A stretch of DNA of 64,000 nt, from assembly GCA_002633005.1 (NCBI GenBank), contig NMRA01000148.1, positions 372,001 through 436,000 on the forward strand, written 5' to 3'. The stretch is from Phoronis australis (lineage: Eukaryota; Animalia; Phoronida). The notes below the pieces were generated by a model. That model did no database searches. It had not been told where the DNA came from and was given only the letters and a program-made list of their open reading frames with translations. This document shows, in pieces, positions 3,401 to 31,263 of the stretch. A program made the translations under genes and the position numbers. Every line of letters starts with the position of its first letter. Position 1 is the first letter of the stretch.

Positions 3401-6400
3401 TTAGAGAATAGTAATACTATATTGAGGCTGATATAGGACACAGGCAAATTACACGACATAAATCAAGTAAATAGAAAAGAACAANGTGCTTCAATTGCTT
3501 GCTGCATGGTTTCGATATTCCTTTGAAGCTCCATAAGCCAGATTTGAAGGATTATGCCAACGAACACACTATATTACTACTTCAACCACCTCGTCAGCCA
3601 TTTTTTCTTCAGTGATATCAGAGACACCTGAAGGGCTCTTAATCAAAATGGTAATTCACAGTAAAAAAAAAAAAAGATACTAATTTTATATAATTTTATT
3701 TGCTAAGAAATAAGCCCAATAATTTAACAACCATTTGAGCACTTTTAAATCTCAAAACTCAACATTTTCGATGACTAGTAGCTATTGTCACAAGTGCTCA
3801 CTTTGGCTGAGGTGGCTGCGAACAATTGCTCATTACTATATGAAGACGGGTGTTCGCCGTGGTTTTGATGCCAAATATCTATTCTACTAAGATAGATCAA
3901 ACCCGCGATTAAGTTTCAAAGAGTAAAATTTGGCTTCAGCTGAGATTGACTCATTCAAACCTGGGCAAGTTATCCATGTTTTCTGCTTGTATGACCCCAT
4001 GACCCTTCAAACCCCAAAATGTTGAATTTTAGGTGCAACTTGACACTTTTATTTTTCATTTTTAGGAAGACAATGGATGAATTTATACAAAACAGTAGCT
4101 ATTTCATTTTCTAGCAGCTTCTGTAATTTCCTACAATGTCACAAAAACTTTGATTATTGGGGTAAGTTCTGATAGTGGTTTTCAGTGAAAACTGATGTAC
4201 CCGACTTTTAAGCTACCTAACGCGATAGAATTTGTTTAAAGTGCATTTTAGTAATTACCATAAGCAAGTAAACAAAAATGCATAATATGATCCAAATCCG
4301 TCACATAGGGTTTATCACCCCTGCATGGATTTTTGCCTGGTCTGAAGTGTACTGCACTCTTAAGTTTATCTGGTACCAGGCAGCCAGAAACACTCACTCT
4401 AGTATTGTAATTGTGAGAATCTCTGACTGCTTTGAATTTAGTAGTGAGGTAATTAGGTGTGAGGCTATGTGTGGCTTTGTACACCATAAAGTTTAAATGA
4501 AAGGCATGCCTGTTAACCAGGCTGCATCAACCAAGTGTATCGAGGTCAGCAATAGGAAAGTCATTATAAAGGCCACTATAGTTGAGTATCAGCCTCCAAG
4601 CCTTGTTTTGTAATTTTTGAAATCTATCCCAAAGGTATGATGCACAGTTACCCCACACAACGTCACAGTAATCAAAGTGTGGTACAATAGACTCTTGTAC
4701 AGTCTGAAGAGTAGCCTGATCGACATAGCTTCTGACTCTCTACAAAAGCCCAATCCGCTGACAAACTTTTTTGCACACATACTCAACATGTTTGTCTCAT
4801 GATAAATTATTATCAGTCATAACACCCAGATATTTATGAACATGATCAGGCCCTTCCGATTCCCTCTCTTTTCTTCCCATAGTATTTTAATAAGAGCTCG
4901 GATGTACAATGGCGACTTCGTGAAGACCTGGAATTTTAACCAAACAAAACCTGAGGTTGCATTGGCGACCTTTTAATCGAGCCCTAGGTAGGCTGATTTC
5001 AAAGGCTAGCTCCTTACAGTATGTGCACATAACTAGTTAGTGTCTTAATTGAGTGATGACTGGGAATATTGTTACTTCACAAAAATACTGTTGGTAGTGT
5101 ATAATGCATATTGCACAAAAATTTAATTACGGAATCAGCTGTACAGGGACATCTGGGCCTAGGGTCCAATCTCCAATCTCAGACTCACTTCAAGAGTCAA
5201 TCATGCCACACTCTTAGAGGGCAAATTTGTAAGTTTACTTGAAGACTACCATGTGATTGGTAAATTTTCGAGCTGAGTTTCAAATATTTACAGAAATTAG
5301 ACTCTGGAACCTGTGGTGCATTCCACAGTGCAAAGTTCTTATAAGTCTTCTGAGATCACGCAAGTGAAAAACAAAGTTACCAGCGCAGACCAGCAAAATG
5401 GCCACCACTGAAGTGATTGGACAGCAAGACTAGAATGCTGAATTAAAGTCCCTATTTCTATTCCATAACACAAGATTTCTCACGGCAAGTATCTCACAAG
5501 TGACTAACAATATGGAATGCAGCCAAGATGTCATAATTTACTAAAGATGACGGATACACAAAACACTCTCATTGCAGCTGGTTACCTTGGAGACGGCTTG
5601 CATCGCTCCTCAACTACTTGAGCTACCTTCTTGTCCCTAGCCTGGAACTCCGCAATCAAGTTTTCTATGTCATCCTGTAAATGGATGTACCCATCACATC
5701 TCAGACAGTAAATGTTCTCCAAATAAATCATAAAGCAGCTCACATTCATGAAAACAGCAGGTGTTGTACAGGCATTCTTAAAACAATGTTTGCAAAACAA
5801 AGCTCAGACGTACATTTTATTTTAATTACATTTTATTTTAATTAAAACCTCTGCTAACTGATTGTTAAGTATGGCAAGGGAATCACAGTCTCAGAAACTT
5901 GTCCTTGCTCATTTGAACTGCGCACTGGTTGACTGGGATTACAATGATCAAAGGGGCACTTTTGTTGGAAACGAAGTAGAAAAATAATCTCGAGTTAGTG
6001 AATGAGTCACAGACGCAACAAAGTGTCCGATGTAAATTCATTAGCCCAAGTTTGCCATGATTTGAGAAAAATTATTTCTAAAATCTATATAAACCAGCCT
6101 TTAGCCTTTTTGCATTGGCACGAAGTTTCAGTCAGTCAACACAATCCAGGTGCCCACCATGCGTGTACCTGAAACCAATTTTGTTCTTTTGAGAATGCTG
6201 TAACACCTGAGGATGGCCAGAGAACTGGCTAACTGAAACATCGTGCCAATTTTAATAGGCTAGAGTTGATGTACATAGACCAATAGATTTTAGAAATGAT
6301 GTTACTGTTTCAAAGCGTGTAGAAATCTGCACCATGTAAGAATATTCCTACATTCTAAAAGACAATGCAGGAATTCCTACATTATACAACAATGTAAGAA

Positions 6401-7318: not shown

Positions 7319-7707
7319 TTCGCACACCACACATGTGTCAGTCGGAATCCTTCTTCACTAGCGTTACCTTGTGGCCACGTTAGAAACCAATTTAATTAAA
7401 AAGTTTTTTTCTCATATAGCTAGTAAACGCCTCTGACGTAATTCTGGTATGATAAGATAATGCAAGCGAAGCACTTAGAGACAATGTGTGAATGTTAACA
7501 CATTGCTGAATTTTTTATTGCTGATTCTATGTTTTTTCGCAAATGGGAATCGGGAAAATTGAACCAATCAAATTATCTCTGAGCGATGGGTGCAAGGAAA
7601 ATACCCGTATGTTGTGGATAGATGATCGCATTTTGAAGAAATTCATGGGGATATTTAATACGCAATTCAGCACCAGTTGCTGAAAACTAGTAATAGTTTG
7701 TGCCACC
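7319..7707. promoter_or_regulatory. Putative bidirectional promoter / 5' UTR region shared by KLHDC4 and the ZCCHC14-like gene
   Basis: Divergent ATGs are only 390 bp apart. The ZCCHC14-like ATG has a perfect Kozak context (GCCACCATGG). A CRE-like TGACGTA lies at about 7434. Confidence 0.6.
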
Positions 7708-10700
7708 ATGGTGTGCAAGGAAGAAGTTTTAAACTGGTACAAGCTGCTAAGTCCTTCAAAACGTATTGAAGTTATGTGTGGCCTGTTACATATGTGCATT
7801 CCACTGGAGCTAAGATTTCTGGGCTCCTGCCTGGAAAACTTAGCGAGAAAAGATTTTAGCATGTTGAGGGAAGCAGAACTCAAAGCCAACAGTCCTATCG
7901 AAATAGGAAGAGTGAGTGATATGCAGTCGGAGGTGTCCCGTGCTCGCCTGGTCACTTACTTGGCTTTACTTCATTCAACAAATCACGAGTGTGCCAATTT
8001 AGTTTACAATCACATTCTGACCTGTGTGGAATGGAGCACCAGAACGTTACCTATGATGGATCCTGATCTAGCCAAGGAGCTCTTACTCATGATGACTATG
8101 GCAGCAAATAGTCCAGCTTTTACATTTGATCAAAGACAGATAATATGTGACCATATAGTCACTTTAAAGAATTTATTTTATAACTACATTTATCAGGTGA
8201 GTACAAGTTGTGTGTGAACTGCCAGAAACTCATGTTTAAACTGATTTTTAACATTTTTTTTAAATCTAAAACAATGGAAATGTTCTGAAAATCAAATTCA
8301 ATTTAAATGATGTATTTGAATACTGGTAGTCTAAATTTACAACCACTTGGTTTACCTTGTGATTGCTAATCTTTTGTAATTGGATCAATATACTCTGGCA
8401 AGACCTCATAACAACTATGTAATGAGGAAACGATGAAAGTCATCTAGAAACAAACGGGAATGTTGTATATCAACTGACAATTTCATATTATAGGAAGAAT
8501 GTAGTGAGCAGTGTGTACACAATCAAAGACAAACAAGTGATTCTAGGCCGGATGGTGGGAACACTGAAGCTGGTGAGATGCGTCGCTTTTATTTGTCAAT
8601 GAATGAAAGCCATCATTGGCCGAATTCATATTGATCTGATTTACTTTAAAGTTGTTTTTTGTATTTTCTAAGAATTCTGACAATACTCATTGCTCTCTTT
8701 TATTGGCAGTTTAAATCTATCATTCACTCAGATTTGATAATGCTCATCACAGATTGTAAAGTTTCTATTTTTGTAAGTAGTAATAAGTAAGTAATTTTTT
8801 TATTATAGTGACATGTGTTCAAATTTATTTAAACAATGGATACGGTACAAAACAGGAACACCCAGCTCTCCATGGGGCTTATAAGTCACTTAATATACAT
8901 TGTGCAAACAAGAAAAACAAGTATACACGCATTGCAAGAGGACCAAAAAGAGAACACAGATATAAGAGTGATCACAACCGTATCAATATAAATTTTTCCT
9001 TACTTCAAAAATATTTTTGATGAAAAGCGAAGTTTTTCTGAAAACATCTTTTTGCATGATTGTAATTAACATATTTTCACAGCTTTCTGCAAGAAATCGT
9101 TAATATTTAATCTCAACTTGACAATAAAAGGTGTTTTTGGCATCTAAGAACAAACTGACAGTCAAACAGAAAGTGCACTTCAATTTTGACCTGACCAGTG
9201 TGACAAAGACAGCAAATTCTATCATCAAATTCTGGAAAACAAAAACACCCAACCTCAACCAATAGCTGTAGGGTTCCGGTTCTAATTTGAGCAAGAATTT
9301 ACCTACTAGGCCGAGTTAAGTCTTAATGCACGCAAGGCTCAACTTCAAAAACATTCTTCATCAAAACATAGGTTCTTAACTTTGGTTTTCTACAGCATTC
9401 AAACAACAAGCCAAATCATGTAAAATATTCTCACAGTGAGAGAAATTTTAACTGAACGTAAGTTATGAAAACAATGCGACATCCCTAATTCTTCAAAAAT
9501 GTTCAAAACTTCAGAAGGCCAATTATTAGTACAAGTAGTGTAGTCCCACCAAAATATTTGATATGTTAGTCTACCTTCCTTGAAATTAATAACACGATTC
9601 CACATTCTCAAAAGCTTCTGTACCTCATATTTTTATTCTTTTTAAATTTATTAATTAAATCGCCCAAAGCTCTTCTAGCAGATTCGGACAGAGTTTTAGC
9701 AGTTTCAGAAAACTTCAAATGTTCATTTAAAATTATCCCTAAATATTTATAATTGGTTCATATTCTAGGTCTAGTCAACCCAACCGAAATGGATATAGAA
9801 TATGAGAGACATGCTTGGATTTGAAGTGAATAATATTAGTTTTTTCCTGATTGACAATTAGCCTCCATTTAGAGCACCATTGATTGTCAACTACCCGGTG
9901 TATTCAATAAACCCTGTATATTTTCTTCCCTCTTGGCTAGTACCACTATATCATCCGCATAAAACAAAGATGAAACATCAGCACCCATAGGAATTCCTAA
10001 ATTTGACTGTTTTAATTCCGTTGCCAAATCATTTATGAATAGTGCAAAAAGAGTAAGTGATAAAACATCTGCTTGTTTGACCCCACAAGGTGTATAAAAC
10101 TAGTCCGTAAAGGTATTATTAATTTTAACACAGGATTGAGTTTTGGCATAGATATTTTTAATCGATTCATATAACTTTCCAACTATCTTCAGATCCAGCA
10201 TTTTAAAAAGTAAACAATTTCCATCTACCCAGTCAAAAGCTTTTTGCATATCAATAAAAGTCGCAAATGTGGATTGTTTGTTATTCAAGCGGTTACGTAT
10301 AACTGAGGTCAAAACAAAGACATGATTAACACTCGCTCTGTCACAACGAAAGCCATTTTGCTCATCAACAAGGACCCCATTTTCTTCCGCGTACTCAACC
10401 AATCTATTGTTCAGTACACTACTACGGTATACAACTTGTATACGTTGGACAACAAGTTGATACCTCTATAACTCAGGGGGACGTGCGGGTCCTTCTCTGA
10501 CCTCTTTGGAATTGGCATAGTAACGGATTTATCCCGTGAGCTAGGAACCATGCCGTAACGAAAAGCCATTAATTAATGTTAAATGCTTGAAAGTTTAGTA
10601 AATGCTTACATAAAAGAATTTGTTCTATTAATATCAATGCAACAGGAGTTACAGAAAGTCAAACATTTCACATGGGAAAAGTTCCATACATTAGTTGATT

Positions 10701-13700: not shown

Positions 13701-16700
13701 CATTGCTTATATAAAGTGAAACAAAGTCGACTGCCTCATTAGATACAATTTGTAATGCCTTTGGAGTATTCGTGAGAGCAAATGTTCTGAGAAACCAGCA
13801 ATGAATAAACCATTGCGTTACTGGCTTTGGATTGACCGGGCCAACCGAGGCCGTGAGAGCGCATGCTAATTCAGTGTTTACTGACAGAAAGCTGTTGTGA
13901 GACAATAACTCGATTTTATATGCTATGGTCACATGTTAAGGGAATCTTTATTTAGATACAGAAATGTATTATTCAAATCATTGTTACTGTACAACCTTTG
14001 CCCTGACGGTTCTGTGGAAGGGGAACCTGACTTTGTGGCCCCTGACAAGTAAGTAGATTTTCAGTTTCGTCGCTAATTCACATAAATAGTTACATGCACA
14101 TTATTTCTTTGGCTCACTATTATAACAGTCTTTTCGTGACTGGAGGTTTAGTTTCCAACTTAAGCTGGTTTATGTTCGTGATGTCCAGTCCCGGCGGCCG
14201 CCATACCGCGAATAATACGCTTAAAGGAAGATATGCCAGAATTTTCACCGCTCATCCTGAGCTGCTTTTACCAGAATCAAAGAGAGCATGGTGCCGGAGT
14301 CGCGTACAGTTGTGGTGACCGCATTGCCCGATGCGAGCAAGACCCAATTAAGTGTAATTACACGACCATAAACTGTATTAAACATCTCTGACTGTACATA
14401 ATGGCGAATTTTCAAAATGCATTAACCACTAATTTTCGTTACAAATGAACACCACAGCGGTATTCAGCTGGAAAAAAAACAACCAAGTACGGTTTTTGAT
14501 TTTTAAAAATCGATGAACTTATAACCTAAAAACTACAACCATAGGGTACGATGAGATACTACCGTGTATTGATATACTCGATGGATATACAAATGCTGAT
14601 CAGAGTTAACATGGATTCATTTTTTAATATTCTTTCAAACTCATTTAATCAGATTTTGACCAGGAAACAGTTGTACTTAACTTGTGCCCACTTTTCATTT
14701 TTATGCTGTCATCTCTGTCCGTGCGTCCAGCATCCACTGCTCTATCTCCAAAATGCCTTGACGTATGTTCATGAAATTTTGCACGTGTGTTCCTTCTGTG
14801 GATGGGACGGCATGAGCGAACTTTCGGACAGATCCGACTACCAGTGTGCCCCCTAGTGGCTATTTTAGTTTTTTATGCGCCCACATATTTATATGCGGAT
14901 GCATAATGCCGTCATCTCCGTCCGGGCAGCGTCCGTCCGGCATCCGCTGCTCTATCTCCAAAACCCCTTGACATACCTTCATGAAATTTGGCATATATGT
15001 TCCATTCATGAATGGAACAGCATGAGCGAACTTTCAGACGGATCCGACTACCAGTGTGCCCCCTAGTGGCAATTTTTTTTTTTTTTGCGTCCACCCCTCT
15101 ATCAACCAAACCGCTCAAAGGATGATTGTGAAAATTGGCATGTATTTGTTTACTATGAAGAGGACTGTTGGCTATGATTTTCCGACGATTTCGAGTACTG
15201 TGGCGCCTCCTACTGGCAGTTTTGTTTTTTTTTGCGCCTATGGCTGTATCTTCTAAACCCTTCGCAGGATCTTTACAAAATTTAGTAAGTATAGTTATAT
15301 GATGTTAACAACGGACGATGACGACTTTTGGACAGATCCGACTACCGGTGTGCCCCCTAGTGGCAGTTGTATTTTTTTACGTTTACCTTTGTATCTTCAA
15401 AAGTCCTTAACGGATTTTCATGAAATTTAATATGTTGGCACCTATTAGTGAGATGGCACTATCCTCCCGTTCTCGGATGGATTTGACGTAGTTTGCAACA
15501 CCTAGTGGCCATTTTTACTGTTTTCGAGTCTGTTCTTTTGCGTCCACCTAACCGCTCAAAGGGTGATTGTGAAAATTGGCATGTATGTGCTTACTATAAA
15601 GAGGACGGTTCACTATGATTTTCCGACGATTTCAACTACTGTGGCACCTCCTACTGGCAGTTTGGTTTTTTGCGTCTATGGCTGCATCTCCTAAACCGTT
15701 CGCAGGATCTTTACTTAATTTAGTAAGTGTATTTATGTGATGTTGACTACGGATGACGACGACTTTCAGACAGATCTGACTACTGCTGTGCCCCCTAGTG
15801 TCAATTTTAGTTTTTAACGTTTAACTCCGTATCTTAAAAGGTCCTCAACAGATTTTCATAAAATTTTAAATATAGGCATCTATTGGTGTGATGATGCTAT
15901 CTGCCTGTTTTTGGATGGAATCGAGGTATTTTGCACCACCTAGTGGCCACTTTTGCTGTTTTCAAATTTTGTTTTTGGTGTCCATCCCTGTATCAACCAC
16001 ATCATTTGAAAATTGGCATACGGTATATGTTCTCAGTGTGAAGACGACCTTTGATGATGGTGACTGATTACTGTGGCGCCTCCTAGTGGTAGTTTTTGTT
16101 TTGCGCCCATAGTTGTATCTCTTAAACCCACTGCAGGATCTTTACTAAATTTAGTAAGTGTATTTATATGAAGATAACAACAGACGATGACTTTCAGGTG
16201 GATCCAGCGGACACTGTGCCCGCTAGTGGCAATTTCATTTTATTCTGTTTTCCTTTGTTTCTCGGAAGTTCCTTGACAGACTTTTATGAAATATGGCATT
16301 TTCCTGTTTTTGGATGGATTGTATGTTTTTGCGCCATCTTGTTTCCATTTTTATGATACAAATTAAAAGCACACCATTCGCAATGCATTCGATGAATTCA
16401 AGCAATAAATTGACACCAGTAAGCATGTTATGAACGGCTGAACAGACTGCATTTGAACCGATTGCATCATTAGTTAATTTCAACACCTCCGTCTGCCGTT
16501 AGGTGTCGGGTAAAACAACTGAACTTGCTGTTATCGAGTGGAACTATTTGATCTAAATTGATACAAAATAGGTTGGTTTTTGGGTGGCATTCTCCTTTAA
16601 TTATTGGTTATTGAATTATCTCATCTTCTTTCCTGTGTCCAGACCAACACTATCTAATGTTTCTTGACAACCAACAGCCAGACCGAGGATTAACTGAAGA

Positions 16701-19700: not shown

Positions 19701-22700
19701 ATTTCAAGTTTTATTGGAGTAGTCTAACCCTACAATTGCGAATTCAGAATGTGATGCATGTACGCATTGCCTGTGCCTTTAGTTGGTAATGGAAATAAAA
19801 TCCAACCACGGTAGGGAATGTTGAGACTGATTTTATGAGAGTAAAAAGAATTTGTTTTATTTTTGCCAGCTAAATAAGGGCTGTTCCAGTAAAATCCGTG
19901 TGGGGGGGGACGGCAGTAGAAATAAAAATTCATGGGTGGTGGTCTTCAAAAAAAACTCAAATTATGGGTGGTCGTTCCTTTAAGAAGTGATGCATTAAAA
20001 ATGGTGGTATTTTTTGTCCTGTTAATGTTGACAGGTTGGTTACTTCAGCTGTCAAAACTCTAAAAAATGCAATTGGCATAAATCCTAACTTATCCCAATA
20101 CAAAAAAGCCCATGTTGCCAATGAACAGAGTGCAATATGTTCACTAAGCCATTAATCAAGTTATGGGCAACTTGATTTGAGCCAACTGTTTTTCTGCAGT
20201 CCTATTGGATTGAAAAGTTATGCAACACTAAACTGGTGTCAACACATATAAGAAAATTGATGATTTTTAAATAAAAAGTATGAGGAGTAAGATAAACAAG
20301 TTCCAATATTCACTTGACATAGAAGTATAAAAGAGTGCGTGGAGATAGTTTGAGATTCATAGATCCTTATAATTGAAAAAATGTTCATTGAAATTATAGA
20401 CATATGGTGAACAGAGACACCTGGTGGCTGCCAAAAGTATTGCTCACAGGCTACTTTAGTTTTTGACAATATTGGACAAGACAACTAGTTCTTGTCTGTC
20501 AATCATCTAAGTTCTTAACAGGTCTTCCTGGAGGCAATTTGTTTGCAAGTGTTGATTTTATATTTTAACCTATTAAAAATAATTAAAAAATTGTGGGTCA
20601 TGAGTTGGAGAAATAAATGAAAAATATGGGCGGTGGGTACGAAATAAAAGTGCCTTCCCCCCTCCCATACAGATTTTGCTGGAACAGCCCTAAGGCAAAA
20701 TACAGCTTTAAATCTGTAATTATCATCACCAAGTCGTCAGGTTATGCCAGTTGAATTTGCATCGTACATTTTGTAAAGAAGTATTTAAGGCATGCGTCAC
20801 CCGATTAAATTTGGATGCAACACTGATTACTTTTGGATGATGCAGAAAATGATTGCTGATGTGCTTCTGACGTGACTGGTCCATAATTCTCTTTCTATTG
20901 TCATTTTCTATTGTATCTGTGCATTAGTCGCACTCATGTTGACTTTTCATTTCGTATACAGGTGGGTTCGTCGGCAGTCATCCACCTCACATGGCGGCAA
21001 CAAACATTGTGAACGCAGTAACTACAAATCACAAGTAAGAATGTGGACCTGCTATCTTCTCATTTGGTTTAAGTACTTAGCGGACCGTTTTGCTAGCAAA
21101 ACATTTTATGACTTTCTTACTACTTTAAACAAAAACGGAATTGGTAAATGATTTTTTATTTGTTGACCTCACTATGTACCTTGTAAAGTAAAGCTGCAGA
21201 AAATTAGTTTTGATTTAGACCTCTGTGTGTTGTGAAACCGACCGTGACTTGCTCCTTACTCAAATTGGTACTGGGCTGGGCTAGAACTGACAGTTCATTA
21301 TTGCTTGAAGCCACGCTCTGAACATCAAGTTATCTGCTTGAAGCCACGCTCTGAACATCAAGTTATCTGCTTGAAGCCACGCTCTGAACACCAAGTTATC
21401 TGCTTGTCCAGGTCTTCTCAAGTTCAGCAATCTCTTTGGATTTGAGTAAGGAACAATTCGAGACCAATGTGATAACTCTATGTGGTCTAAATGAAAAGTT
21501 AATATCAGGTGAAAACATTCGATGGCTGGAGAGTTGGTTGGAATTGTCCTCTTTTAAGAGGATTTCCTCTGTTTTGGTTTCAATTTCCTCTTAATTGATT
21601 TCCAGTTTCCTCTTTTTTCGTTTGTTTTTATCATTATTTTGACTTCATTCATGCTAAGCGTTTATTTCTGTCAGTTAAATTTTACAACACAAAAAATATT
21701 TTTATCACACCAGCCTGTGGAACAATACATCACCTGGAAAATTTTCCTCTTTTTTGTTGTTGGTCATTCCAAGCCCTGGTTGGATTATTTTCCTCTTGTA
21801 TGTTGAAATCTTCCTCTGAAATGATAACTCAGTTTACTTTACTTTGTTATAGATTGGCATACACCCACAAGCTGGCCGTTGAACCCACGTCGCAGTGCTC
21901 ATCCCTACCTTCACCTCTCTCCTCACCCCAGGAGACGCCCTCTCCCCCCTCCATCAGTGATTCTGGCCAGCAGGTCCGTGACTGGCTGACCAGCGTCCAC
22001 CTGAGCAAGTACTCTCCTCATCTGACCAAGTTTAGCATGCAAGAGGTAAGACTTGAATCGCATGTCAGGTTTTGTGAAGTGATATACTGCCATGAATGAA
22101 TTTAAGGTAATGGGCTTCATTACCAGGAATAGAATTTTACCAATTTACCTAAACATCATTCAACAAAGAATGGACTCACCGGAGACAGCCCAAGAGTTGT
22201 TATCTCTGCGACGAAGGATGTTAAAGTTGAGTTTCCGATGAGTTGCCAGCAGTCACTGGTACGGTGCGCGGCTTTAGATGCTCTGCGGCTGGGTTAAAGA
22301 TCTTTTATAGGCCTAACTATCCCCAATTCCCGTACCAGGATGAATTTCAAAAATAACTTGACTTGGCTGCGTCAGATGTGATATGCGACGTTGATGTTGA
22401 AATTGCGCCATATTTTTTATGTTGATTTCCTTTGTTGGTTTATAATTCATATATTGCAATGTAGGCATCCGGGGGAGGCTTGGATGTACTTGTGACTGTA
22501 GAGTCGTCAAAATTTATCCATTCCCATGCTGACGATTTAACACAGCATGTATAATGACCACCCGTCGTCTTTCTTCCATGGTGTTCAATGACTGCTTTTA
22601 TTTTGTAGCCGGAGAGGTCATACGAGGAAATCTTTGTGTTGATTTTTTCACCATTAGTCGCGGTTCGTAAGATATGAATACAAAGGTATTTTGGCGGTTT

Positions 22701-25700
22701 TACTAATGACCATGTGAGCTGGCCACTGAGACTATTACAGTGTGGGCAACTAAAGTCCTCGATGTCCAACGACGTCCACAAGCTGTGCCACAACTCCTGC
22801 ATAGTTATTTCTTTCCTTAGCGTTGGGAGGTAGACGGTCAACTCCCAGTCTATCTGTGTTTTTTCCTTTGTTGTTGTGCAGTTATTACAGCTCCTAGTTT
22901 GCTTCTTCACGTGTTGGAAGGTACTAGTAACCTCAGACGTTACATTATCAGCGTTGTGAGCAAGTGTGTCAACGTGCCATTGGTTCAGTAACCATAGTAA
23001 AAATTCATGGGCATCCTGTTGACTTCCGTTGCCAAGAGAGTTGTTCTGTAATCTTAGTTTATTCAAAATTTCAGACGGAGTTGATGTATACCTTTTAGTT
23101 GCTTCATATGTGTTCACAAGGATGGTTTTCATATTGTTTTTCTTGTTGATATTGTATTTGTGCCAGTTGAGGTTGCATGAAAAGATAGCTTGAAGTGTAG
23201 AGTTCACAAAACACGTGTTTCCAACATTGCAAAGACCAAATCTTTTATCTTTTGTTGATTTTTCGTTTGTCTTCCTTGATATCGGGGATGACGAAGTAGC
23301 TAATTGTGTTTCAATCTTGGGCTTAGAAATGTTGCAGAGTTGCCATTCTGTAAATTGCTTGTTATTTCTTGATAAATATATTGTATAGCTACATCTAAGA
23401 GCTGTCTGAGATGCCGTTTGGTATGCTTGTTTTTTGATTTCTTTGGGGACCTCGAGGAAATTCATTAGCTTCTTTAATGATTTGTAGATGAAGCCTCTAC
23501 TTCCAACTTCAACAGGGAACAGAACTGTTTGCCATCCTGCGTTTTTACATTCTTCGACGAGATTTGTATATTTCATTCTTTTTCTCAGGTGTGCTGATTC
23601 CATATTGTCTTCTGCTGGTATTGTAAGTTCTATTAAAACTGCTATTTTTGCCTGAATTGACCATAACACAATGTCAGGTCTTAATGCCGAATCTGTTATT
23701 TCAGATGGGAATATAAGAGGCGTTTCTGTACAATCTTTAATTAGTTTCCAATCGTTGGTCTTGGCTAGGAAGTGGGTCTGTTCTTTGAATTTCGGCTCTG
23801 TTCTGTTATTGTCGAAGTACAAACCGTTCTTTGACTTAAATCTGATTGCTGTTTCAGTTATAGGCTTTGGAGGGTGTTGAACTACTACATTGATAGCATC
23901 AAATATTATTGCTAGGACTTGGTCATGTCGCCAAGTGTAGCGACCGTTATTTAATGCTACTGTGCAATTGTTGAGGATGTGGTGAAGAGTGCCTTTAGCT
24001 GTTCTGCAGAGGTTGCAACGTTCAGAAGGCGATTGTTTCCATAAATGTAAATTTGCTGGTGTTGGAAGTACGTCGTGTATGGCATTTAACCTAAATGCCA
24101 AGAGAGATGGATTCCATGCATAAAGACTCTTGCTCCAGGATACATCAAGTGACATAACTACATCCCATCTGAGCCATAACCCTTGTTTGGCACAGCTATA
24201 CAGATATAAGAGTGCTTTGTTTTCGTCGACTTCCTTTATACGTTTCGTTATAGATGCTCTATGTTCCTTGGTTGTCATGTTCTTGACGAATTTTCTATTA
24301 TTGGTGTTATAACCCAAACCTTTCCTGTCATTATGACTTATCGAATTACAAATTTCATTCAGAACTATATCCCTTTCTCTCTCTTCGAGTTCTTTTATGC
24401 CATTCCACCGTTTTGACGTGAAAAATTGTTTAACTTTACCCATATAAAGTTTCCTTGCTTCAGGGTCGTTCGCATATTTGTTGATGTGAAACTTGACCAC
24501 TTGCATCTTCTTTAGATGGGTTGTTAGGCTAGTCATGCCTAAACCAAGATGCTCTTTGGATCTGTAGAGAACTGTGTTAGTTGACATTTTACTGATTCCA
24601 AGCCATTGTTTCAGATATTTTGTGCATATACGTTCAAGTTTTTTAGCGAAACTCAGTGGGAAGTCATACACTGTAAATTCCCAAGTAATCCTTGGAACCA
24701 CACCGTTGTTGTAGATCCATGCTTTAGTTGGACCATTAGTGCTGTCTTTGTCGAGAATTTCCAGCAAAGTATTCAATTTTGTCTCAAGTTTATTCCTTAT
24801 TTCCGTGTCTTTCAGATTTTTGAATATCGTTTTCCCAAGGAATTTCATTGGTTCTTGATGGATGTAGGGCATTTTTGTATTCTGGATTGACATTTGAGGA
24901 TCATACGGTTGGAATGTTGTTCCTCCACGAAATGCAAGTGATTTACATTTGCATGGCTTAGCTTTCATTGTGCGACTCCACGTGAGAAACTGCTCCAGTT
25001 TTTGAATCATTGATTGACAGTCTTTCGGGTTTGTAGCAATAATAGTGAGGTCGTCAGCATACACTAATTGGTGGAATGTTTGTTTGGTGAATTTAAGTTT
25101 GTAACCATTTTGTTTCTCTTTGTCGATCATCTCTAGGCCCAAGTTGAAGGCTGCGAGGAAAAGTACGACAGACAAAGGGCATCCCTGGAATAAGCCAATA
25201 CTGTAACGTATCCAGTTGGTTGTCCACTCTTTAGTTCGTATTCGTACGAATAATTCATCGTAGTACGCGTATATTATTTGTTTGATCGCTTCTGGTACAT
25301 GATACCTGTCAAGTGCGAATTGGATGAGGTTGTGGGATACTGAACCATACGCGTTAGCCAGGTCAATCCAAGCAACGCTAAGTGGTTTATTTCTTTTTTT
25401 TGCATCATTTAGTATGCTGGAGAGAGTCTCAGTATGTTCTAGACACCCTGCTACCTTTTCCATAAATCCTTTTTGTATTGATGTATTTATGAAACCGTTG
25501 GAACAAAGGAACTTCATTAGTCTATGCGCGATTTTAGTGAAGAAGATTTTCCCTACTGTGTTAGTTAACGTGATTGGACGAAACATGAATGGGTCTTTAA
25601 GATTTGTGTCCTTGGGAATTAATAAGCGTTAATAACAGACCCAAAAACCACATATTCTTAAAATTGTGAATAGTCACGAAATCTTGTGATGTGCACAAAA

Positions 25701-28700
25701 TAATGCCAGATGTTCGTAACCATAGAACTGCATAGAAATCCGGATTTTTTATGGAGATTGTCATTATTTCCACAAAAAGGCATTATTTTTATGTGCACAC
25801 ATATTTAAATGTTGATGCATTATGCTGTCATCCCCATCCGTCCAGCGTCCATTGCTCTATCTCCAAAACTCTTTGATGTATGTTCATGAAACTTAGCACA
25901 TGTGTTCCTTTCATGGATGGGACGGCATAAGCGAACCCTAGTGGCAATTTCAGTTTTTTTACGTTTACATATATCTTCAAATGTCCTCAATGAATTTTCA
26001 CAAAATTAGGTTTATTGGCATCTGTTAGTGAGATGACGCTATCCTTTTGTTTTCGGATGGATTGATGGTATTTTGCATCACCTGGTGGCCATTTTTGCGG
26101 CTTTTGAGTCTTGGCATCTGCTCCTCTATCAACCAAACCGTTCTGAGGATGATTGTGAAAATTGGCATGTATGTTCTTACTATGAAAAGGACTGCTGATG
26201 ATGATTTTCCGACGACTTTTACTACTGCGGCACCTCCTAGTGGCAGTTTTTTTTTTGCCCCCATGGCTATATCTCCTAAACCTTCTGTAGGATCTTTACT
26301 AAATTTAGCAAGTGTATTTATATGAAGTTGACAACGAACAACAACTTTCGAAAGGATTTGACTATCGGTGTACCCCATAGTGGGAATTTTAGTTTCTAAC
26401 GTTTACTTCAGTCTGTATCTTCAAAGGTCCTCAATGGATTTTCATAAAATTTGAAATATAGGCATCTATTGGTGAGATGACTTTATCCCATTTTCGGATG
26501 GTTTCAAGGTATTTTGCGCCACTTAGTGGCCATTTTTGCTGTTTTCAAGTCTGTTTTTTTGACATCCGCTCCTTTATCAACCAAACCATTCTAGAGTTGA
26601 ATTTGAAAATTGGCGTATATGTTCTCAGTGTGAAGAGGACGGTTGACAATGACGACTTTGACTACTGTGGTGCCTACTAGTGGCAGTTTTGTTTTATTTT
26701 GCGCCCATAGCTATATCTCCAAAACCTACTGCAGGATCTTTATTAAATTTTGTAAGTGTATTCATATGAAGTTAACGACAGATGACAACGACTTTCAGAT
26801 GGATCCGACGAACACTGTGCCCCCTAGTGGCAATTTCATTTTTCCGTTTTCCTTTGTTTCTGAAGTTCCGTGACAAATTTTTATGAAATTTGGTAAATAG
26901 CTTTCTATTAAAGAAACGATAGCATTTTCCCGTTTTCGGATGTTACCGACATATTTTGTGCGCCATCTAGTGGCCATTTTTATGATACAAATAAATAACC
27001 CTAGAAGCACACTGTTTGGTATGCATTCATGAGTGCATTTCACCGCTCCACGTTGCTCTTGTTCATATAATTTGCAAATTTTGTTTGTATATTCTATTAA
27101 CTAGTAAGAGTATCTGGGATTAAGCCTTTTAGCTTCATAACTCTTACATTACCTGATAGGGTTTTGGAAAATAGCTTATAGTATCTGAAAGTTTCGTATG
27201 AATTTGTACAGCCATTTCTGAGAAGTTTGCCAAATTTGGACATTTTTCTAATGTCTTGCATAACCTTAAGTTACTCGTCACAGTGATTTGGTTTTAGCTG
27301 TTAAAGCCTATTGCCATCGCGTAAATTCCAGGTTTGTTTGTGACAACTTTTAGTTAAAAGGATAAGTACGCAGCTGTGTTGCTTTGGAAGAACAAATAGT
27401 TGCACCTGTGTTTTGTTTTTGACACCAGAACACATTGTAACCGGTTTACAAATTGCTGGCACGATATTGACTGTTCAAAGTATAAGGAGGTGCAATTAAA
27501 AAAATGCCTTAGTCTGTAGATTTCATTTGTTCACAATATCTTGTGTAAACAAATAGTAAAACCAACATATATCGAGGTGGTCGTAAGCAAAGATATAACG
27601 CAATCTTTAAAATATGATATCACGGCTGACTTAATGGCTTGGTACAAGTACACTTTCCCTATTAAGCCATCATAGGCATACAAGTTGAAGGTCAATTTTG
27701 TTGATGGGTTTTCTCTACAAAAATTTTAACATTGATAAGGTAATACTATTGACTATTGAGGCGGATATATACGAGTGTGTTACGTAAGAATTTTTAAAAA
27801 GAAACAGCATTACGACGGCAGCGGTCAATATGAATAATCTGTTGTGGCTGCAGTTTTAAGTACTTCGAAATACTGACCACTGGTGAGATTAAAAATCCTG
27901 TGATAATGGTAATTGTCGCCATAATTGTCATAAAACTTGTCATTTGTTGCAAAGTGGAAAAGCACTGTTTTGCCTGTTATTTTTTGTTGGAAATACAGTT
28001 CAAGACGAAAGAAATCAGATTTCTAATTCTGTGAAGAGCAATAATTACTGGTAACAGGTGTTTGGGTGGCAAAATTCTAATTACAAAATGCCATAGCCAC
28101 TTTACTAATTTTGCTGTTGATTGGCCTTCATTCTCAGTCATGAGAGAAGGCTATTCTATGTTCTCTGACTATCTATGAATTCGGCTTTCGCCCAGTCGTC
28201 ATGACAGGGGGAACTCTAGGTCACTTTGTCTGAATACTTCTGACTTGTACTGTTAACTTCTGAATTTTATCTTAGCGTTGCACTCACCTGCTGTCTCAAC
28301 TTCTTGTTCTTCCAGCTGCTAACCTTGAGTGAAGATAGGCTGGAGTCCATGGGTCTTCCCAAAGGTGCTACGAGAAAACTGATCAAAGGGTTGGAAACTC
28401 TCAAGTAAGTATCTAGTCACCGAGTTCTTGTGAGAGTTATATATGTAGTTGTTGTTCCCGTGGTATTATATTTCAACCCTCCTAAAAGCCTACATTCATT
28501 CATTGTGGAAGCTTTGATAATAGTTTTATAAATTTTCCATTTTCAGATCCAAAAGAAACGTCAATGGGCTGGTCGGCATTCCTGCCGAGTCTCAGTCAAG
28601 ACCAGAATCCCCGCTTACCCCGCCGACAACATACCACACGCCACCTAGTCAGTCGGGCACTAGTCGGGCCGAGTCGGAAAACGGGTCTTCTGATTGCGGT

Positions 28701-31263
28701 CTGACAGCGAGCTCATCTTCTGAGAATGGGGAGGATATACCAGGTAATGATCAACAGCCAGGTGTGTTACTCCAGGACTGCTGAAAAAGCTCTGTTGACT
28801 AAGAGAGCTTGTCACTTACCACATATACATGGACTTGCTTATTTGCAAAACATAAGTAAAATCTGGGAGCAACTTTACTTGCATGGAAATGAAGGCTGAG
28901 GTATTGTTACGGTAGATCTGAAGATAAAGTTTTACGTTTAAAAAAATAAAGAAATATATTTTGTGGGAATGCAAATCATTTGTCAGAGTAAGACCATGTT
29001 TGAAAAGCACGTTTTATTTCAAGCATAAGTTCAGGGCCTAAATTTGGAGATGTATGGTAATGAGATACTGTAATATCACAGTTCTGTCCAACAGATGGCG
29101 TCGTGATGCTGCAGTTCACTTGTGCAGCTTTTGTCAGAATGCATTTTCTCTGGGGTAACCTAGTTGGATTGGGATTGTTGTTTTCTCCTAGAACATCAAA
29201 TTGCCATCAGGGTGTTTCCACTGACACGAAAACTGAATAGTCTATAAAAATTTCCTTGCTGACATTCTGTGTTAACAGCTCTCTTAACTTTGACAAATTT
29301 TTACCTGAATTGCTTCAGCAAACCTGTAAATTTATGTTTTTACTTCAGCTCATTGTTGCATTATTTGATGTGTTGTTTGCTTGTTTATCCCAGGTAAACC
29401 CCCACCAGCCATACGTCACATCCCTGTACCGCAGAAGTCAGCCAGTTTGCCTTCGATGCTGTCGCACGATGACGGTCGGTTATGTATATCCAACTCTCAG
29501 CAGGAGCTCCGTGGTGACATGGTGCATGTGCACATGCATCGTCCTCCTGCCCCGCCAAGCCCATCAGTCATGGGACCCAGGTTCCCCGTGCGCTCCCCTC
29601 TGCGACCTTCCAAACCACTAGTGCTACAAGTGGCCCCGCCCATGCAAGACCCGGCTATTGTACGACACGCTGCCGAGTTCACCACAAATATTGTCCTAGG
29701 GGCACCGCGTGATGCTGACCGACCACCAGAGACAATCACCCCAGTGTCCGTTTCTGTGGTGACAACATCGCACATGTTCAGCCCAACTCAGGTCACTGTC
29801 AGTAACTACAAACCAGCAGTGGTGATGCCCCGCCCCAGCTCACCCCCTCCCCCTCATCAGTCCTACCAGCAGATGCCCCAGCTGGTGCCCATGCCTCACC
29901 ATTTTAGCTATCCCCCGCCACCCATGTCTGCTGACCCGGGCTCTGTGATGCCTCCTGCACCCACTATTCAACACGCAGAACACGGGATTGCGCATGGATA
30001 CCCCGTGGGCAATAGTAGTAATCAGACAGGGTATAATAGTGACTCCGGCCTGCATTCAGCTTCCACTCACTACACTGGTGGCGTCCCTCACAATTCAAGT
30101 GTACCAGCGAGTTTAGGTGCATCGCAGGTTACCACAGCCACAGTTGTTACGTACGCCAGTGGTGGACACCCATTCGTTGCTCCACCCAGTGCTGCCCCAT
30201 CATACCATCAGTTTACATTGCCGCATGGTGTACCTCCCCCGCTGATGGCTCGGCATCACTGCCATGGCTGCTCTGGCAGCTGCCCAGGTAGCCAGCATCA
30301 ACCCTATATATCTGGTCAGGTTGTGCACTACCCAGCTTTCATACCCACATCCAATGGACTGATCTCACCCGGCATGCCAAACATCAACCCTGGCCATGTA
30401 GCCACTGTGAATGGGATGGTTTCCCACATGAGAGGTGTGCCACTTCACCCGTTCTTTAGGCCACCCCCACCCAAGGGCCGGATCCTCGAGTGCTTCAACT
30501 GTGGCCAGACAGGGCATCACGGCTCAGAATGTAAGGAGCAGACGATGGACAAAGTGACCTATGGTGGTGAGTCACACGTGTGTGGTTGTGTGATGGTATA
30601 TAATTATTGTGACCCAGTCGGTGTCTCCTTGAAACTAGGAGCTGCAATTTAAGTTTTCCACACTGTATGTCAACAGTTTTCTTCTAGCCTGTCAAACGCT
30701 CGGTGTTTGCCTTGATTTTATGTATTTTGGAACATCTTTGCAGTCATGTTGATATTTTTCTGTAAGCTGTTCAAGTCACTAAATAGAAAAGGAATGGAAT
30801 GTTCCTTGGTGAAACTTGTTCTTGTGGTGGCCTTTAGGTTGTGCACTTTTCTACACTAGGCAAAATTAAAAGTGAATCAATCTTAATTTGCTTGTTCTGG
30901 AGTCTGTTTCATGACAAGTGAGACATTTGGTCTCACTCTCCACACAACTATTTTTTGAAAAATAGTTAAAATCTCACTTGAGCAACAAATGTCTATGAGA
31001 ATGCATCCACTAACTCCTAGGTATTTTGGTGATTTATATAAATTATTACTAGGTTGTGATATTCTGATAATTACATGATTAATATTCAGTAATTGCAAAA
31101 TGGTAGCACAAGACCATCACCAAATTTCTGTCTTGAATCTTAAATCACTTTCATGAAACAGACCTCTGGAAATGGGAGTCATTATCTATCTAATAACTCA
31201 ATTTTAGGGTTTTTTCTTTTAGGTATGTACCATATGAAATTTGCCGAGGAAGAAGAAAAGTGA
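7708..31263 (+). CDS. ZCCHC14: ZCCHC14/ZCCHC2-like (GLS-1 family) RNA-binding protein, about 935 aa. Exons 7708-8196, 8494-8572, 11989-12062, 16756-16827, 17413-17479, 18265-18337, 19006-19109, 19413-19496, 20962-21034, 21853-22045, 28316-28404, 28547-28743, 29394-30566, 31223-31263
   Basis: N-terminus [31 protein letters not shown]. PX-like domain VTWSNDRVTTVSRTFAELHNFHVQLVKLFPNEAG..ERKIPYL...ALSSMPEHLIQCGHVTNFF. SAM domain VRDWLTSVHLSKYSPHL../LLTLSEDRLESMGLPKGATRKL. Pro-rich region, zinc knuckle CFNCGQTGHHGSEC, and terminal GMYHMKFAEEEEK*. All 13 introns are GT-AG with consistent phase, 2808 nt total. Likely the single pro-orthologue of vertebrate ZCCHC2 and ZCCHC14. Confidence 0.88.
8990..10570 (-). 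pseudogene. Decayed APE-type LINE reverse transcriptase fragment in a ZCCHC14 intron
   Basis: YRGINLLS-like segment, DEQNGFR...FIDMQKAFDWV and LFYADDIVVL (about 9940-9968), broken by stops and frameshifts. Confidence 0.8.
13249..13510 (+). pseudogene. THAP (C2CH) zinc-finger remnant
   Basis: MP..(frameshift)CIVPACLNYEAAKKAGVSFFRLP*DPKMLRKWLEVAK...LLVCGRHFVDSDF shows the THAP C-x-C, FP, W and C-x2-HF signature, with one stop codon. Confidence 0.8.
14700..16400 (+). repeat. Interspersed element with internal ~146-bp tandem units (Helentron/HINE-like), copy 1
   Basis: tgccccctagtggc-like motif recurs at about 15055, 15200, 15349, 15495, 15640, 15787, 15933, 16073 and 16216, with three-unit (~440 bp) higher-order structure. 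T-rich start and tccgtcc motifs. Homologous to 25786-27050. Confidence 0.75.
19878..20690. mobile_element. PIF/Harbinger-type (Tourist-like) MITE
   Basis: TAA|GGGCTGTTCCAGTAAAATCCGTGTGGG ... CCCATACAGATTTTGCTGGAACAGCCC|TAA: ~27-bp TIRs and a TAA target duplication. Confidence 0.85.
21302..21406. repeat. 33-bp minisatellite, 3 copies plus a partial copy
   Basis: (tgcttgaagccacgctctgaacatcaagttatc)x3 with one substitution. Confidence 0.95.
22100..25628 (-). mobile_element. 5'-truncated RLE-type (HERO-like, R2 group) non-LTR retrotransposon, antisense in ZCCHC14 intron 10
   Basis: Open frame from about 25628 (LIPK...FRPITL, start of RT) to the stop at 22440, followed by a ~300-bp putative 3' UTR. 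The 3' boundary is approximate and no clear TSD was seen. Confidence 0.88.
22440..25586 (-). CDS. Retrotransposon polyprotein (N-terminally truncated): RT, CCHC, RLE endonuclease, USP/peptidase C19 domain
   Basis: RT: QKGF, GCLEH, WIDLANAYGSV, GLFQGCPLS, YADD (about 25050-25061), KFLG. CCHC: CNLC-x7-HILNNC. RLE: YTWRHDQV, RPDIVLWS, IELTIP.E, RKRMKY, PVEVGSRG. USP: GLCNVGNTCFVNSTLQ, QQDAHEFL, CNNC..CPHC, PKYLCIHILR, AVIEHHG...GGHYTCCVK...W..FDDSTV...AYIAIYE. Confidence 0.93.
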   Translation of the reverse strand: MFRPITLTNTVGKIFFTKIAHRLMKFLCSNGFINTSIQKGFMEKVAGCLEHTETLSSILNDAKKRNKPLSVAWIDLANAYGSVSHNLIQFALDRYHVPEAIKQIIYAYYDELFVRIRTKEWTTNWIRYSIGLFQGCPLSVVLFLAAFNLGLEMIDKEKQNGYKLKFTKQTFHQLVYADDLTIIATNPKDCQSMIQKLEQFLTWSRTMKAKPCKCKSLAFRGGTTFQPYDPQMSIQNTKMPYIHQEPMKFLGKTIFKNLKDTEIRNKLETKLNTLLEILDKDSTNGPTKAWIYNNGVVPRITWEFTVYDFPLSFAKKLERICTKYLKQWLGISKMSTNTVLYRSKEHLGLGMTSLTTHLKKMQVVKFHINKYANDPEARKLYMGKVKQFFTSKRWNGIKELEERERDIVLNEICNSISHNDRKGLGYNTNNRKFVKNMTTKEHRASITKRIKEVDENKALLYLYSCAKQGLWLRWDVVMSLDVSWSKSLYAWNPSLLAFRLNAIHDVLPTPANLHLWKQSPSERCNLCRTAKGTLHHILNNCTVALNNGRYTWRHDQVLAIIFDAINVVVQHPPKPITETAIRFKSKNGLYFDNNRTEPKFKEQTHFLAKTNDWKLIKDCTETPLIFPSEITDSALRPDIVLWSIQAKIAVLIELTIPAEDNMESAHLRKRMKYTNLVEECKNAGWQTVLFPVEVGSRGFIYKSLKKLMNFLEVPKEIKKQAYQTASQTALRCSYTIYLSRNNKQFTEWQLCNISKPKIETQLATSSSPISRKTNEKSTKDKRFGLCNVGNTCFVNSTLQAIFSCNLNWHKYNINKKNNMKTILVNTYEATKRYTSTPSEILNKLRLQNNSLGNGSQQDAHEFLLWLLNQWHVDTLAHNADNVTSEVTSTFQHVKKQTRSCNNCTTTKEKTQIDWELTVYLPTLRKEITMQELWHSLWTSLDIEDFSCPHCNSLSGQLTWSLVKPPKYLCIHILRTATNGEKINTKISSYDLSGYKIKAVIEHHGRKTTGGHYTCCVKSSAWEWINFDDSTVTSTSKPPPDAYIAIYEL
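25786..27050 (+). repeat. Interspersed element with internal ~146-bp tandem units, copy 2
   Basis: Same start (tttttatgtgcacacatattt...tgctgtcatc...tgctctatctccaaaa) and same unit series as 14700-16400. ctagtggc-like motifs at about 25935, 26077, 26228, 26370, 26516, 26668, 26817 and 26960. Confidence 0.75.

Follow-up and report, generated by a model that had tools for sequence, protein, structure and literature searches.

In the HERO clade of retrotransposons without long terminal repeats (non-LTR elements; HERODr, HEROTn, HERO-2_BF), as described in parts of PMC4640811 and PMC9004415, a single frame encodes a reverse transcriptase (RT), a CCHC zinc knuckle and a C-terminal restriction-like endonuclease (RLE); in the sequences that we collected, such proteins end a few residues past the RLE. 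The same arrangement is found in an element copy within a 64,000-nucleotide stretch of the phoronid Phoronis australis (contig NMRA01000148.1, positions 372,001 to 436,000; hereafter the window), but here the protein adds a 265-residue ubiquitin-specific protease (USP, peptidase family C19) behind the RLE. The window's RT-RLE part is matched best, by sequence as well as by fold, by the R2 proteins (R2Bm, R2Tg; PDB 8GH6, 9DOU), at 17-20% identity; R2, however, is specific for 28S ribosomal DNA (rDNA) and ends after the RLE, whereas the window copy is intronic and carries the USP.

Proteases of ubiquitin-like modifiers are known from other mobile elements. According to portions of PMC4640811, NeSL and Utopia-1_TSP are RLE-bearing non-LTR elements that, like the window element, hold such a protease in one protein, but theirs is a Ulp1/C48 enzyme at the N-terminus and comes from nematodes, whereas that of the window is a C19 enzyme that follows the RLE at the C-terminus. 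An OTU or Ulp1 domain is appended to the transposition enzyme in Ginger1, Helitron and Mutator, C-terminally in Ginger1, and a Trichomonas protein that joins transposase_11 to Peptidase C19 (XP_001314237.1) provides one C19 precedent on a mobile element (sections of PMC2836005). As far as that source goes, all of these are DNA transposons and, unlike the window element, none has an RT and an RLE. We found no description of a USP on an RLE element in a literature search that ran without Repbase, Dfam, subscription journals, supplements and Fell et al. 2025; a Repbase entry for the RT-RLE-USP arrangement is quite possible. In the portions available, the 2026 R2 review PMC13580325 does not mention protease, peptidase or ubiquitin, and PMC5678591, PMC9004415, PMC5718144 and PMC8557442 contain nothing on USP-bearing RLE elements. 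The sequence-only reading of this locus knew of no C19 domain behind an RLE; for C19 on mobile elements at large, the Trichomonas protein is a precedent.

An in-frame USP domain behind the endonuclease

The list of open reading frames in the window contains a stop-to-stop frame in which an RT, a CCHC knuckle, an RLE, a disordered linker and a complete USP domain follow one another:

22440..25628, minus strand: single stop-free frame of 1062 codons, which starts inside the RT and lacks the element's own start codon
24828..25592, minus strand: reverse transcriptase core (Pfam RVT_1, residues 13-267), YADD at 25061-25050; R2 proteins match best by sequence and fold
23964..24017, minus strand: CCHC zinc knuckle (C538, C541, H550, C555)
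23361..23930, minus strand: restriction-like endonuclease, with RHD at 23930, RPD at 23681 and the PD, E667 and K683 residues
23238..23360, minus strand: linker of about 40 residues rich in Ser, Lys and Thr, predicted disordered, without Gly-Gly
22443..23237, minus strand: minimal USP (Peptidase C19) domain of 265 residues, with Cys806, a QQD box, four zinc-ribbon Cys, His1025 and Asp1041-Asp1042

Profile searches and motif positions agree on this layout. RVT_1 was matched with an E value of 4e-20, whereas the match of zf-RVT to residues 507-559 (E 6e-5) was weak and lay under the curated cut-off. The Pfam UCH profile was covered from position 2 to position 254 of 254 by residues 798-1060 (E 2e-33), with a score of 116-123 bits against a curated cut-off of 23.9. 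In an alignment of 74 proteins, C538, H550 and C555 of the knuckle are invariant and C541 nearly so, and the RLE residues H568, P651, D652, E667 and K683 are invariant. The sequence-only reading had proposed this frame and placed the catalytic Cys and His exactly where they lie (Cys806 at 23213-23211, His1025 at 22556-22554); Asp1042 is encoded at 22505-22503. An RT, a CCHC motif and a PD-(D/E)xK nuclease in this order in one frame, together with multiple copies and 5' truncation, are features of RLE-type non-LTR elements, and the frame is confirmed as an RT-RLE non-LTR protein with an in-frame C-terminal USP.

Structure prediction gave the fold that had been expected from the letters. When modeled in isolation from a 43-row alignment, the USP domain (predicted local distance difference test, pLDDT, 89.8; predicted template modeling score, pTM, 0.88) showed the thumb-palm-fingers fold with its zinc ribbon, and its best PDB match was USP46 with ubiquitin (TMq 0.83, E 1e-24). 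The whole-protein model, built from 74 aligned rows, had a mean pLDDT of 88.7 and matched R2Tg, R2Pm and R2Bm before any USP; residues 768-795 of the linker fell below 50. The window's USP shares the fold (TMq about 0.8), the Cys and His boxes, the QQD box and the zinc ribbon with the cellular enzymes USP46/USP12, USP2 and USP36 and with the minimal USPs of giant viruses. It differs in being about 20-26% identical in the fold matches, in its length (255-300 residues for element USPs, against 270-424 for the cellular enzymes), in lacking accessory domains of its own and in being fused to an RT-RLE protein.

The fusion is not a chimera of the assembly, since contigs that cross the RLE-USP junction were obtained from two studies. 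The Cys box, together with the tail of the RLE, lies within a DNA contig of run X2 (22909-23381, two differences) and within a contig of run X5 from another study (22657-23408, 14 differences and one gap). The four best DNA runs come from one sample, from which the window itself may derive, and X5 is independent; runs X6 and X7, sampled in small part, yielded short pieces only.

Carrier families, selection and descent

The architecture is not confined to this locus. A first protein search returned 72 matches, comprising ten with an RLE followed by a USP, three cellular USPs and 59 elements with no USP. A profile of six carriers, searched against a library clustered at 50% identity, returned fusions as 41 of the best 150 matches (two query members included), and a USP lay behind the RLE at 16 of 80 metagenome loci, in the same frame at 15. 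In total we collected 106 in-frame RT-RLE-USP sequences, which fall into some 49 groups under 50% identity by a rough greedy count. Most are from metagenome contigs; one NCBI entry labeled bacterial is probably a binning error. Among longer proteins (1408-4020 residues) there were 11 matches, with P0001 as the sole fusion. A metagenome scan with the window protein alone gave 15 pattern matches and no relative, whereas an alignment query did find relatives; viral contigs gave eight pattern matches, none of them a relative of the window protein.

Thinning 85 full-length USP domains at 80% identity left 48, with a median identity of 29%. The catalytic Cys, the His and the next Asp are present in all 48, the zinc Cys in 46 to 48, and the third catalytic residue is Asn in 32, Asp in 13 and Ser in three. 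The domain is terminal: the protein ends exactly with it in 30 of the 48 and within four residues of it in 42. Linkers measured in 35 carriers range from 39 to 317 residues and are rich in Ser, Lys, Pro and Thr. A Gly-Gly pair occurs in only five of the 48 linkers and LxGG or RGG in one, and no PCNA-binding PIP motif was found in any of the 48. Among the profile matches, five records (P0135, P0136, P0139, P0164, P0184) contain six to ten tandem USP domains; the repeats score almost equally, which hints at concatenated records or at tandem arrays of recent origin.

Other enzymes occupy the same slot. In P0211 and P0424 a DarT-family ADP-ribosyltransferase stands between RT-CCHC-RLE and the USP in one 1738-residue frame, and their RT falls in a third group; P0051 and P0426 come from canonical HERO-like elements in which a NADAR domain follows the RLE, where the carriers have the USP.

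To measure selection we compared 19 locus pairs more than 45% identical, nine of which were saturated at silent sites (pN 0.18-0.38). The ratio of nonsynonymous to synonymous substitution rates (dN/dS) of the USP was 0.09-0.20 in nine of the ten computable between-family pairs, all from the large FMDD group, and the RLE of the same elements behaved alike. For the window's own family, the best-supported differences between the reads and the frame number 30, of which 15 are silent and 15 non-silent; silent sites number 696 and the remaining sites 2490.

In unrooted trees of the RT-RLE part, which contain fetched relatives only, carriers occupy four places:

Place 1: the window element with P0001 and P0155, YADD type
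Place 2: P0185
Place 3: P0424, with DarT between RLE and USP
Place 4: a large FMDD clade, sister to fish and lancelet elements

Among named relatives without a USP, the nearest belong to genomes of fish, lancelet and ctenophore. The YADD group of the window and the FMDD group of fish and lancelet lie on opposite sides of a fully supported split in a tree with neither reference HERO elements nor an outgroup. A single carrier clade was rejected, also if it was free to include those elements of the large clade that have no USP (approximately unbiased test, AU, p about 1e-57; 41 rows, L005 being excluded since its contig stops within the tail). L005, a sister of the window's group, has at 4590-5180 a tail of more than 200 residues with an internal repeat, and a USP or other cargo may follow. 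The anatomy, the C19 assignment and the inferred capture of a minimal deubiquitinase, as proposed from the sequence, are supported, but confinement to one lineage is not.

The tree of the USP does not repeat this rejection, as one clade of all element USPs is compatible with the data (p 0.275); in a mixture-model tree of 31 rows two groups are separated weakly (86/83 and 76/42). Across 35 carriers the similarity of the USP correlates with that of the RLE (Spearman 0.63, reached in none of 2000 permutations), as expected for long co-inheritance. With carriers at four places in the RT-RLE trees and a single carrier clade rejected, capture, swapping or loss recurred: captures may have been independent, the domain may have been swapped between elements, or an old capture may have been followed by many losses. 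No USP remnant was detected downstream of the USP-less elements L019, L055, L056 and L061. The nearest cellular matches of the window USP, which include USP2, USP46/12, USP21, USP3 and USP36, are 22-29% identical to it and many subfamilies score closely; for element USPs as a whole the best identity to a cellular USP is about 31%, so there is no close cellular parent. The element USPs sit on long branches, and neither similarity searches nor trees name a donor subfamily.

Taken together, the fusion within one frame, the fold, the conservation of the catalytic residues, purifying selection in related families, the many independent families and the four positions in the RT tree leave us almost certain that RT-RLE-USP is a real, selected, family-wide architecture.

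The window copy, its transcripts and its 3' region

The frame belongs to a truncated copy that lies in the following surroundings:

22133..25622, minus strand: 5'-truncated RLE-type (HERO-like) non-LTR retrotransposon copy, lying antisense within an intron of the host gene; its 3' end is placed roughly, at 22133-22175
21834..22045, plus strand: part of a host exon adjoining the element; the intron opens with GT at 22046 and RNA reads lie in one orientation only
25630..27400, no strand assigned: unrelated high-copy repeat with internal units of about 440 bp, abutting the truncated 5' end of the element
22256..22338, minus strand: candidate twister-like (P5-type) ribozyme, predicted cut between 22296 and 22295, from a descriptor of our own
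22175..22242, minus strand: long 3' stem-loop close to where the element ends, according to the RNA fold

That the copy is 5'-truncated is seen from a contig of run X2, whose match to the window stops at 25622 and gives way to 36 letters that do not match, and from P0001, the nearest relative of full length, which has 347 extra residues ahead of the start of the element's frame; a contig of run X1 (25592-25882) crosses this 5' junction. The host gene, on the plus strand, also encodes a Vts1 domain (7684-8217) and a zf-CCHC domain (29369-30652), and we take it to be ZCCHC14/ZCCHC2-like. The repeat with 440-bp units recurs at about 14700-16400, and its summed contig depth is in the thousands. 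HERO elements mostly lack a fixed target sequence (parts of PMC4640811). For the window element one intronic site was seen, with no target-site duplication (the longest word common to both flanks is 7 nt). Insertion into 28S rDNA does not apply to this copy, whose flanks are host intron and the other repeat, with no rRNA match at 21900-22600.

In run X1 the host exon has a summed contig depth of 0.7, the RT one of about 21, the RLE 33, the USP 65-220 and the 3' end about 390, values that are to be read as a trend and not as copy numbers. As a trend, this stepwise rise is that of an element present in many copies, some of them 5'-truncated, and the USP lies within that element. Variant and broken copies were also seen in the reads. 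At related loci L004, L043, L056, L057 and L068, the frame of a second element begins about 200-1400 bases downstream, in a head-to-tail arrangement.

Three stranded RNA runs of the species, all from one study and sampled at about 18-19% each, were oriented by the host exon, where first mates lay on the minus strand only. The reads derive from many copies, some of them frameshifted. The element family is transcribed in part, and its sense RNA is scarce, which counts against high activity in these samples. At 22500-23670, which spans the USP and the end of the RLE, RNA is deeper than over the host exon and must come largely from other copies. The antisense RNA over this part is possibly a source of silencing RNA.

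The twister descriptor (P1, P2, P4, two pseudoknots and conserved letters) was built post hoc from the twister consensus; it matched once in the two strands of the window and once in 200 shuffles. The outer stem of the candidate appears in the RNA fold (z 0.28), whereas Rfam gave no match in the 3' untranslated region of the element and, at gathering scores, none in 20 related loci. Between 22168 and 22334 the depth of sense RNA climbs abruptly to 150-200 in two of the three runs, and in two (X8 and X9) sense ends accumulate at 22282, which lies 13 nt beyond the predicted cut. This is a hint only, and a separate short repeat that shares 22168-22334 would look the same. At 22279, in a loop of the candidate, the window copy has a letter that almost no read shows. 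At the matching place in related elements, 30 of 63 3' regions have a hammerhead layout in non-circularly permuted (SGC) order, which resembles type SGC in parts of PMC10085705. None of the 63 reverse complements and none of 1260 shuffles had it; the count rose from two to 30 of 63 when the descriptor was loosened on stem II after the sequences had been seen. Examples with covarying stems are L004:1310-1385, L009:3488-3560, L043:3475-3545 and L075:5785-5850. This rearranged hammerhead was found in one of 13 USP-carrying 3' regions and is absent from the window.

Possible roles of the captured protease

With its catalytic residues and fold intact, the USP domain is very probably an active deubiquitinase, and by analogy the RT-RLE-USP protein, an RLE-type non-LTR product by its tested features, may work as OTU- and Ulp1-bearing transposon proteins do. 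USPs cut after Gly-Gly. Because the linkers hold no conserved Gly-Gly site and the domain has no targeting domain of its own, the USP likely stays attached to the RT-RLE protein on its flexible linker and would be aimed by that tether. The tethered enzyme would then act first on the nearest thing, the protein-RNA particle of the element, from which it would remove the ubiquitin chains added by host ligases, so that the scarce element protein could survive until the DNA is nicked and the RNA copied in. Human L1 ORF2p is ubiquitinated by TRIM41 and degraded (parts of PMC10716122). Protection of the element's own protein is the reading we favor, since the tether puts that protein nearest and a host ubiquitin route against a non-LTR protein is thereby known; as the main role we give it about an even chance.

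Several observations weigh against this reading or against the selection on which it builds. In the first protein search 57 of the 59 USP-less matches stop within 38 residues past the RLE, and USP-less elements (L019, L055, L056, L061, P0060) nest inside carrier clades. Since most relatives end soon after the RLE and such elements lie among the carriers, the domain is dispensable. The dN/dS pairs are not independent and include none from the window's group, one near-identical pair gave 0.56, and the 48 USPs were picked for full-length profile cover, which favors intact ones. In the three RNA runs antisense reads predominate over the USP, at a depth of 7-68 where sense reads reach 0-8, and the RT has a sense depth of 0-3. 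TRIM41 targets a different class of element, in mammals, and DarT and NADAR, which act on ADP-ribose, point more to DNA-damage signaling than to protection of the element's protein.

The main rival would have the tethered USP act at the insertion site, erasing ubiquitin from H2A/H2B or PCNA near the nick and thereby steering repair to completion or away from silencing. It is encouraged by the position of the domain, which adjoins the endonuclease on a long flexible linker, by the DarT and NADAR domains that fill the same slot in relatives, and by the DNA transposons that carry OTU, Ulp1 or C19 without having an RNA stage, for which sections of PMC2836005 propose a role in DNA repair. The cellular enzymes nearest to the window USP could be read the same way, several of USP2, USP46/12, USP21, USP3 and USP36 being histone deubiquitinases, but the identity is low, many subfamilies score closely and the trees name no donor. 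The absence of PIP motifs and an eightfold variation in linker length, which implies no fixed geometry to the nick, also speak against it, and we consider action at the insertion site possible but rather unlikely as the main role. A counter-defense enzyme that works in trans in the manner of small viral deubiquitinases, whether its target is a ubiquitin-like modifier or the ubiquitin chains of innate-immune or silencing pathways, would fit the rapid divergence of the element USPs and the similarly minimal USPs of giant viruses (TMq 0.76-0.81), with ESM Atlas rows at 0.77 as a lead only (all Atlas rows are below 0.9). We think it improbable, however, as the USP was never a separate frame at the 16 loci, barring copies broken by a stop or frameshift, and scarce sense RNA would provide little protein for an effect in trans.

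Two further explanations are far less probable. Processing of the element's polyprotein, in which the USP would free itself or another domain, has a parallel in viral papain-like proteases, which share a related fold and perform both deubiquitination and polyprotein processing, but the near absence of Gly-Gly from the linkers, complete in that of the window, makes this part of the sequence-only reading very unlikely. Equally remote is the idea that the fusion is an assembly chimera, or that read-through picked up a host retrocopy, which now rides along as a neutral passenger. The dispensability of the domain in sister lineages and the truncation of the window copy, which cannot move on its own, would allow it, but it is largely refuted by the junction contigs, by some 49 diverse carrier groups with invariant catalytic residues and low dN/dS, and by the lack of a close cellular parent.

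Protection of the element's own protein can be set in a wider frame. The slot behind the RLE of HERO-like elements may be a recurrent site for conflict enzymes, DarT and NADAR among them, at which a working USP was taken up on at least two and perhaps four occasions because ubiquitin is a means by which hosts hold these elements in check; we advance this tentatively, at somewhat short of an even chance. The reason why transposons keep capturing ubiquitin and SUMO proteases such as OTU and Ulp1 has been a matter of suggestion from 2010 at the latest (parts of PMC2836005). The USP adds a third protease fold, on a single-protein retrotransposon whose close relatives do without it, and the matched pairs with and without the domain, together with a one-residue catalytic control, make the question of capture directly testable. 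R2-type proteins are under development for gene insertion, and a selected C-terminal module may bear on their stability or on the outcome of repair. If the favored reading is true, these elements would reveal that ubiquitin serves to restrict retrotransposons beyond mammals too, and that an element can encode its own reply. If the slot is indeed a recurrent site for conflict enzymes, the USP would be a counter-defense enzyme carried by the retrotransposon itself and a portable stabilizing module for R2-type gene-insertion tools.

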